A DNA stretch of 19,047 bases from Nitrososphaerota archaeon (lineage in GTDB: Archaea > Thermoproteota > Nitrososphaeria > Nitrososphaerales > UBA57). A model generated the notes under the pieces. That model saw only the letters and a program-made list of their open reading frames with translations, had not been told where the DNA came from and made no database searches. Position 1 is the first letter of the stretch. Every line of letters begins with the position of its first letter. The position numbers and the translations under genes are program-made. The stretch lies in assembly GCA_013378385.1 (NCBI GenBank), contig JACAFS010000017.1, forward strand, positions 1 to 19,047. The letters are read 5' to 3'. Positions 1,526 through 1,742 of this stretch are shown piece by piece.

Positions 1526-1542
1526 TGGTCCCGCGGGTCGGA

Positions 1543-1563
1543 CTTTCATGGATTTTTATCCAA
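1543..1563 (-). other. tRNA intron 4 (21 nt, T-loop, position 59/60)
   Basis: Central helix UUCA/UGAA has four Watson-Crick pairs, with bulges AAU and AGU and inner 5-bp hairpin UGGAU-AAAA-AUCCA. Cleavage joins UUCAAA to U-CCGAC. Confidence 0.78.
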
Positions 1564-1569
1564 TTTGAA

Positions 1570-1588
1570 TTCGTCGAGCATAAGCCCT
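1570..1588 (-). other. tRNA intron 3 (19 nt, T-arm, position 53/54)
   Basis: Central helix CGUC/GACG has four Watson-Crick pairs, with bulges GGA and AAU and inner helix GGG/CUC closing a 6-nt loop. Cleavage joins T-stem GUCGG directly to UUCAAA. Confidence 0.78.
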
Positions 1589-1604
1589 CCGACGACAGTC
1601 CGGT

Positions 1605-1649
1605 TCCTGTGTTGCTTGGCAAACTGTTCGGATAAGCCAAGGCTTAACC
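1605..1649 (-). other. tRNA intron 2 (45 nt, canonical 37/38 position)
   Basis: Textbook hBHBh' motif. The anticodon stem is followed by central helix CUGU/ACAG, 3-nt bulges AGG and GAA, and inner helix GUU/AAC leading into a 7-bp intron hairpin. Cutting after the second bulge nucleotide gives loop CU-GUA-GA. Confidence 0.88.
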
Positions 1650-1664
1650 CTACAGCCGGAAGCT

Positions 1665-1677
1665 TTTGGCAATATTT
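1665..1677 (-). other. tRNA intron 1 (13 nt, D-arm, position about 22/23)
   Basis: Intron sequence AAAUAUUGCCAAA. Central helix UGGU/GCCA has one G.U pair and is flanked by 3-nt AGA and AAA. There is no inner helix (bulge-helix-loop type). A one-nt boundary shift is equally compatible with the mature sequence. Confidence 0.6.
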
Positions 1678-1742
1678 CTACCAAGCTGAGCTACCGCGGG
1701 CCTGCGGAAAATCATAAGATAATACCGCGGGTCGCGAGACCG

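Follow-up and report, generated by a model that had tools for sequence, protein, structure and literature searches.

How a six-nucleotide exon lying between two introns can be retained when both are spliced out is the question raised by a tRNA-Tyr(GUA) gene found in the window (the whole stretch of DNA analyzed, 19,047 nt of contig JACAFS010000017.1 of a Nitrososphaerota archaeon). The gene is interrupted by four introns, and the BHB motifs of the last two have one nucleotide in common. A pterin dehydratase gene stands back to back with it, and EF-1 alpha lies downstream. The features of the locus are as follows.

1701..1731, minus strand: 5' leader, consisting of positions 1-9 in a second copy (1731-1723), a 21-nt remnant (1722-1702) of the 9/10 intron which relatives possess, and one G (1701)
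1526..1700, minus strand: tRNA-Tyr(GUA) gene, 175 nt, CCA encoded, mature tRNA of 77 nt
1678..1700, minus strand: exon 1, positions 1-22
1665..1677, minus strand: intron 1, site 22/23, 13 nt
1650..1664, minus strand: exon 2, positions 23-37, bearing the GUA anticodon
1605..1649, minus strand: intron 2, canonical site 37/38, 45 nt
1589..1604, minus strand: exon 3, positions 38-53, in which G49-G53 are the 5' strand of the T stem
1594-1591, minus strand, within exon 3: C48-C51, which give the intron-3 central helix its 5' strand
1570..1588, minus strand: intron 3, site 53/54, 19 nt, relaxed HBh' motif without exon-exon outer helix
1564..1569, minus strand: exon 4, 6 nt, UUCAAA, positions 54-59; U54 (1569) is common to both motifs
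1543..1563, minus strand: intron 4, site 59/60, 21 nt, predicted to form a full hBHBh' motif after removal of intron 3 and closure of the T stem
1526..1542, minus strand: exon 5, positions 60-76
1540..1601, minus strand: possible helix of the precursor only, in which G41-U47 (1601-1595) face a strand (1546-1540) made up of the final 4 nt of intron 4 and U60-C62

The reading of UUCAAA (1569-1564) as the exon between introns 3 and 4, put forward in an earlier note on this DNA, is confirmed by gene anatomy, ARAGORN predictions and motif geometry. With all four introns taken out, and only then, ARAGORN recognizes a clean tRNA-Tyr(GTA) of 77 nt. States which keep intron 3 or intron 4, or skip the hexamer, give no tRNA, and in the raw window the tRNA is detected neither by ARAGORN nor by Rfam. 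The genome, which is 96% complete (assembly of 996,535 bases), yielded neither another tRNA-Tyr nor an intronless one; being the only tRNA-Tyr copy found, the gene must be spliced. As read from the sequence, the hexamer is a true exon.

Introns 3 and 4 both feature a 4-bp central helix, the predicted cuts falling behind the second base in each of the 3-nt bulges. The central helix of intron 3 is formed by C48-C51 (1594-1591) and GACG (1575-1572), with four of four residues paired; the bulges are G52 G53/a at the 5' side and a a/U54 at the 3' side, and the inner stem is 4 bp long. In intron 4, U54-A57 pair with UGAA (1548-1545), again at all four positions, the 5' and 3' bulges being A58 A59/u and a g/U60, and the inner stem 5 bp long. 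The chance of such motifs, as estimated by shuffling the intron letters, is low for intron 3 (P = 4e-4) and for intron 4 (P = 3.5e-5). In a genome-wide scan the double geometry was found at this locus alone, and the reversed genome, scanned in the same way as a control, gave zero matches. Intron 3 has no outer helix h in any state (U47 faces U55), and because no exon-exon helix is available its motif is of the relaxed HBh' type. The outer helix of intron 4 is the T stem, which becomes available only after intron 3 is removed. Since a BHB needs six exon bases before the 5' cut and one after the 3' cut, a 6-nt exon forces an overlap of one base. This base is U54 (1569), at the same time the third base of the intron-3 3' bulge and the first base of the intron-4 central helix, precisely as the earlier note had observed.

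Conservation was monitored in loci gathered from relatives, GTDB genomes and metagenomes, 126 of which were parsable as tRNA-Tyr; lineages are given according to GTDB family labels and record titles, and one unpublished genome (G111) is counted only in the tallies of relatives and of the 401 genomes mentioned below. Near-identical tRNA-Tyr genes reside in marine thaumarchaeal MAGs (e.g. ATL, ASW2_bin45, UBA223 and SAT139). The 53/54 and 59/60 introns occur as a pair at 64 loci, which correspond to 33 distinct T-arm sequences. Within the Nitrososphaerales the pair is present in all eight genomes of the genus, in two other genera of the family and in three other families; beyond the order, it was detected in records titled Hecatella orcuttiae, Bathyarchaeia and Geothermarchaeota. 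Between the paired introns there are in every case 6 nt of exon, which read UUCAAA in 31 of 33 orthologues; the introns themselves range between 19 and 35 nt (intron 3) and between 17 and 31 nt (intron 4). Pairing in the intron-3 helix is conserved (a single mismatch among 132 cells), position 50 being involved in U-A, U-G or C-G pairs, and both introns retain an inner stem in most orthologues, though its sequence and length change. In the intron-4 helix, positions 55-57 are paired in all 33 orthologues. U54 faces instead a U in 12 of these (a U.U mismatch, found in two lineages), and is mismatched also in 4/19 lone 59/60 introns. Assuming that all these genes are spliced, the shared base pair is dispensable.

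The same data bear on the possibility that 1543-1588 is removed as one unit, or that the gene is a pseudogene, to which we assign practically no weight. Taken as a single 46-nt intron, the region has one of four central-helix pairs and no inner stem, and its removal does not yield a tRNA. Nearly all orthologues keep the exon as UUCAAA while the lengths of the introns vary, and no other tRNA-Tyr was found in the 96%-complete genome. Excision as a single unit, which the earlier note had named as the finding that would speak against the hexamer, is thus refuted by the sequence. Further candidates were rejected. An enumeration of alternative single excisions having a 4/4 helix left 1588-1570 and 1563-1543 as the only ones to yield a T arm; shifting intron 4 to 60/61 gives an identical product, but 1/4 helix pairs.

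The conflict between the two motifs was analyzed by constrained folding of this gene and of 33 orthologues, with nearest-neighbour energies that ignore protein binding and tertiary structure. According to the earlier note, the two motifs cannot be fully formed at once because of U54. The overlap at U54 holds true, but U54 is not the chief conflict: in the double precursor the intron-3 motif costs 3.4 kcal/mol and a relaxed intron-4 motif 3.0 kcal/mol, and both at once, with U54 unpaired, 6.8 kcal/mol, the shared base accounting for about 0.4 kcal/mol. The larger clash, missed in that note, is predicted at the T-stem strand. Helix and bulge of intron 3 occupy G49-G53, which make up both a strand of the T stem and the outer helix of intron 4; the relaxed intron-4 motif can form in the precursor, the full motif requires intron 3 to be gone. 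The probability of the T stem rises from P = 0.01 in the double precursor to 0.97 once intron 3 is out, and the cost of the intron-4 motif, by then a perfect hBHBh', drops from 3.0 to 0.6 kcal/mol. When intron 4 leaves, the cost of the intron-3 motif moves from 3.4 to 4.1 kcal/mol, the outer helix being still absent. The orthologue medians are a gain of 1.7 for intron 4 and a loss of 0.6 for intron 3 (n=33, kin which are not independent).

Gene anatomy, conservation, motif geometry and enzyme genes are observed; the order and all the chemistry we infer. Introns 3 and 4 would be removed singly by a broad-specificity (alpha-beta)2 EndA and by RtcB, in most cases the 53/54 intron first, and we consider this the probable course. 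At the onset the T stem of the double precursor would be open, C48-C51 would pair with intron 3, and EndA would cut the relaxed HBh' motif, U54 fraying off the intron-4 helix at little cost. The T stem would then close and U54-A57 pair with intron 4, G53 and U54 meeting as a nick to be sealed by RtcB; during this first ligation the hexamer would be still joined to intron 4 and exon 5. Intron 4, by now a textbook hBHBh', would be eventually cut, and the exons ligated. At 10 C, the nicked intermediate generated by removing intron 3 first folds into T stem and central helix, with the G53/U54 nick aligned; at 37 C it is misfolded in the model.

An obligatory splicing order and a tolerant endonuclease had been envisaged as alternatives in the earlier note. 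The pair of options was well chosen, but both probably apply. Intron 3 is relaxed in every route, and an enzyme able to cut intron 3 could therefore cut intron 4 early. As the relaxed intron-4 motif is slightly cheaper in the precursor, folding energy does not decide which cut comes first. There is room for a lesser, still appreciable chance that no order is fixed, a relaxed EndA cutting either HBh' motif first and both routes being completed. The two relaxed motifs are near-equal in precursor cost and can largely coexist when the intron-4 helix is reduced to 3 bp, the U54 pair is dispensable in relatives, and the tRNA-Ile of Cyanidioschyzon merolae loses two introns in either order (PMC3728597). 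The route starting with intron 4, however, leaves the costliest motif for last (4.1 kcal/mol, outer helix lacking), and the matching gene state, with the 53/54 intron alone, was not found in the genomes searched. A pathway in which intron 4 goes first and intron 3 second seems unlikely. In 26/33 orthologues the double precursor forms the relaxed motif of intron 4 at the lower cost, yet the perfect BHB arising after intron 3 removal would be forfeited, the intron-3 motif would become harder to form in this gene as in the median orthologue, and in 12 orthologues the intron-4 central helix consists of 3 pairs only.

The earlier note also supposed that the ligase has to join a 6-nt fragment at both ends, held only by intron pairing. 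This is not the case in either sequential route, as the hexamer is kept covalently attached at one side. A free hexamer would result if all four sites were cut before ligation, the fragment, paired to intron 4, being then ligated at both ends. Joint formation of the two motifs is possible at about 6.8 kcal/mol, and cleavage of a nicked perfect BHB could precede the action of RtcB. Excised intron 4, however, provides a weak hold (2-4 kcal/mol, binding of the hexamer being about -1.9 kcal/mol when modelled at 37 C, and -4.1 kcal/mol when modelled at 10 C), and since there is no partner in the mature tRNA body, the free hexamer would be mostly lost. We deem splicing by this route very improbable; it is more likely a failure route than a pathway.

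Sequential removal, intron 3 mostly first, can be compared with the distribution of the T-arm introns. In 69 tRNA-Tyr genes fetched without selection for such introns, a sample in which the own genus is over-weighted, 27 genes had none, 27 had one near 56-60, 15 had both, and none had the 53/54 intron alone. Patterns for a lone 53/54 intron, spanning only some T-arm sequences, had no match in 401 genomes of the order, nor in 301 genomes of the phylum, a sample overlapping the former; as a control, the same gapped syntax applied to lone 59/60 introns gave matches in 5/5 genomes. As the 53/54 intron was not found alone, introns 3 and 4 are not independent in the genomes searched, and their independent gain or loss, to be looked for among orthologues according to the earlier note, was not borne out. 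The distribution (lone 59/60 common, lone 53/54 not found) agrees with the predicted splicing intermediates. It fits either the gain of the 53/54 intron atop the 59/60 intron, or the loss, via spliced intermediates, of intron 3 and then of intron 4; the data cannot separate the two, and the missing lone 53/54 state could merely record the order of gain.

Further variation was observed among tRNA genes. Five introns (at 9/10, 22/23 or 30/31, 37/38, 53/54 and 59/60) interrupt tRNA-Tyr at 17/64 double loci, some of which are redundant (L008, L010, L019, L116, L123 and duplicates); no published five-intron archaeal tRNA was found in the literature searched. At L025, L029, L040 and other loci, introns at 30/31 and 37/38 set off a 7-nt anticodon exon in the same gene which carries the 6-nt exon. 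Loci L111-L113, from another genus of the same family, have a 15/16 intron and lack T-arm introns, a pattern denoting fast turnover of intron positions inside the family. A lone 59/60 intron is found in two other tRNAs of the genome under study (G000 C3 near 20233, plus strand, and C11 near 6857, plus strand), and in a different tRNA of one relative (G023 C1:1187335-1187377, minus strand) the T arm is matched a second time, an insert lying near 59/60. ARAGORN calls only 21 tRNAs in the 96%-complete genome, several of them wrong; the genes called 'Tyr(ata)' and 'Phe(aaa)' are different tRNAs whose introns were misplaced (G000 C12:31959-32068, C89:17787-17890 and C11:2944-3053).

The genome carries two EndA paralogues. 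For one of them, EndA alpha, the best alignment is with the alpha subunit of Aeropyrum, and the lysine of the Crenarchaea-specific loop is retained; the second paralogue lacks the catalytic His. Judging from these alignments, the genome encodes an (alpha-beta)2-type EndA endowed with the loop lysine for relaxed motifs. Enzymes of this type cleave relaxed HBh' and BHL motifs (PMC3241643, PMC6379350). An RtcB gene and RNase P RNA are also present. No spliced or part-spliced joints were found in the contigs of four RNA runs (depth 2-3), in which tRNA-Tyr is unspliced throughout, and whose source may be DNA or precursor. Introns 1 and 2 are retained in contig X4 (depth 2.2, 1589-1741), which stops exactly at the intron-3 5' splice site; a lone contig end cannot demonstrate an RNA end.

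When the intron-3 motif is enforced, the fold closes G41-U47 with the tail of intron 4 plus U60-C62, forming 6/7 pairs. It is conceivable, if rather doubtful, that this helix supplies the 53/54 motif with an outer helix and hides the intron-4 3' site. Intron 4 would in such a case be a folding aid for neighbouring intron 3, the removal of intron 3 and then of intron 4 would be enforced, and the failure to find the 53/54 intron alone explained. Position 44 and the last intron-4 base form a Watson-Crick pair (C-G, G-C or A-U) in 10/16 representative doubles, the corresponding pair being found in 1/23 lone 59/60 introns, and where U54 loses its partner, the base facing it can pair with G46 instead. 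The Fisher value of 0.008 obtained for the position-44 pair is an overstatement, the singles being not collapsed; when kin are collapsed the pair is found in 5/11 doubles, with a permutation P = 0.17 in a post hoc comparison. The helix competes, moreover, with the anticodon stem.

The leader preceding the gene (1731-1701, minus strand; loci L005 and L007) contains a second copy of positions 1-9, followed by an old 9/10 intron and one G, and has the look of a 10-nt duplication by which a fifth intron was bypassed. In the remnant the 4-bp helix is kept by compensatory changes (GCGG/CCGC, ACGG/CCGT, GTGG/CCAC), and the copied exon has drifted. The remnant may still be an EndA site, and a cut at its 3' site, if made, would leave a one-G leader. 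The idea that the remnant replaces RNase P was dropped, as RNase P RNA is present. All the 9/10-intron genes inspected (L008-L010, L019 and L123) have a leader copy 10-14 nt upstream. Such copies are complementary to the 3' acceptor strand of their own gene (GTCCCGC), and could keep the ends in place during an opening of the acceptor stem for splicing.

Contrary to the earlier note, the tiny exon is not unprecedented. Some archaeal introns are so close that one must leave before the motif of the second can form (tRNAscan-SE 2.0, PMC8450103; see also PMC4033280), and nested archaeal introns removed in order are cited in PMC3978253 (Sugahara 2007, Tocchini-Valentini 2009). As in the multi-intron tRNAs of Thermoproteales and Thaumarchaeota, introns 3 and 4 are both short, non-canonical BHB introns lying very close, the EndA is an (alpha-beta)2 enzyme, and one intron must go before the full motif of the other can form. 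In contrast to nested archaeal introns, the 6-nt exon just holds the second central helix, neither motif is strictly nested, and the two compete for U54 and for the T stem. The number of introns differs as well, being four here and five in relatives versus 'up to three' in papers on multi-intron archaeal tRNAs, three being also the stated maximum per archaeal tRNA (PMC8450103); literature searches for four or five introns per archaeal tRNA returned nothing relevant. Four-intron Asgard tRNAs are reported in Supplementary Data 4 of Valentin-Alvarado 2024 (Freyarchaeia Arg-TCT and Ile2-CAT, Atabeyarchaeia Lys-TTT by tRNAscan; PMC11291895), with coordinates implying 7-9-nt exons. In the portion of that source covered here, intron positions in the tRNA are not given, and micro-exons and splicing order are not discussed. 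In Cyanidioschyzon merolae (PMC3728597) BHB introns reside in the T-loop and D-arm, and the measured order of their removal tracks motif stability. Unlike at the locus described here, the enzyme is eukaryotic, the motifs fold independently, and share no nucleotides. No paper describing the 53/54 and 59/60 pair was found in the literature searched, the coverage of which leaves out some primary intron surveys.

Splicing of the tRNA-Tyr micro-exon is most likely of an already described kind, the ordered removal of close introns, and new chemistry is not required. What the locus provides is a compact, conserved case of EndA and RtcB not losing a tiny exon, for which single-intron and mismatch variants are natural controls. 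tRNA genes with four or five introns occur in marine Nitrososphaerales, and as these are missed by ARAGORN and Rfam, the tRNA counts of such genomes are understated.
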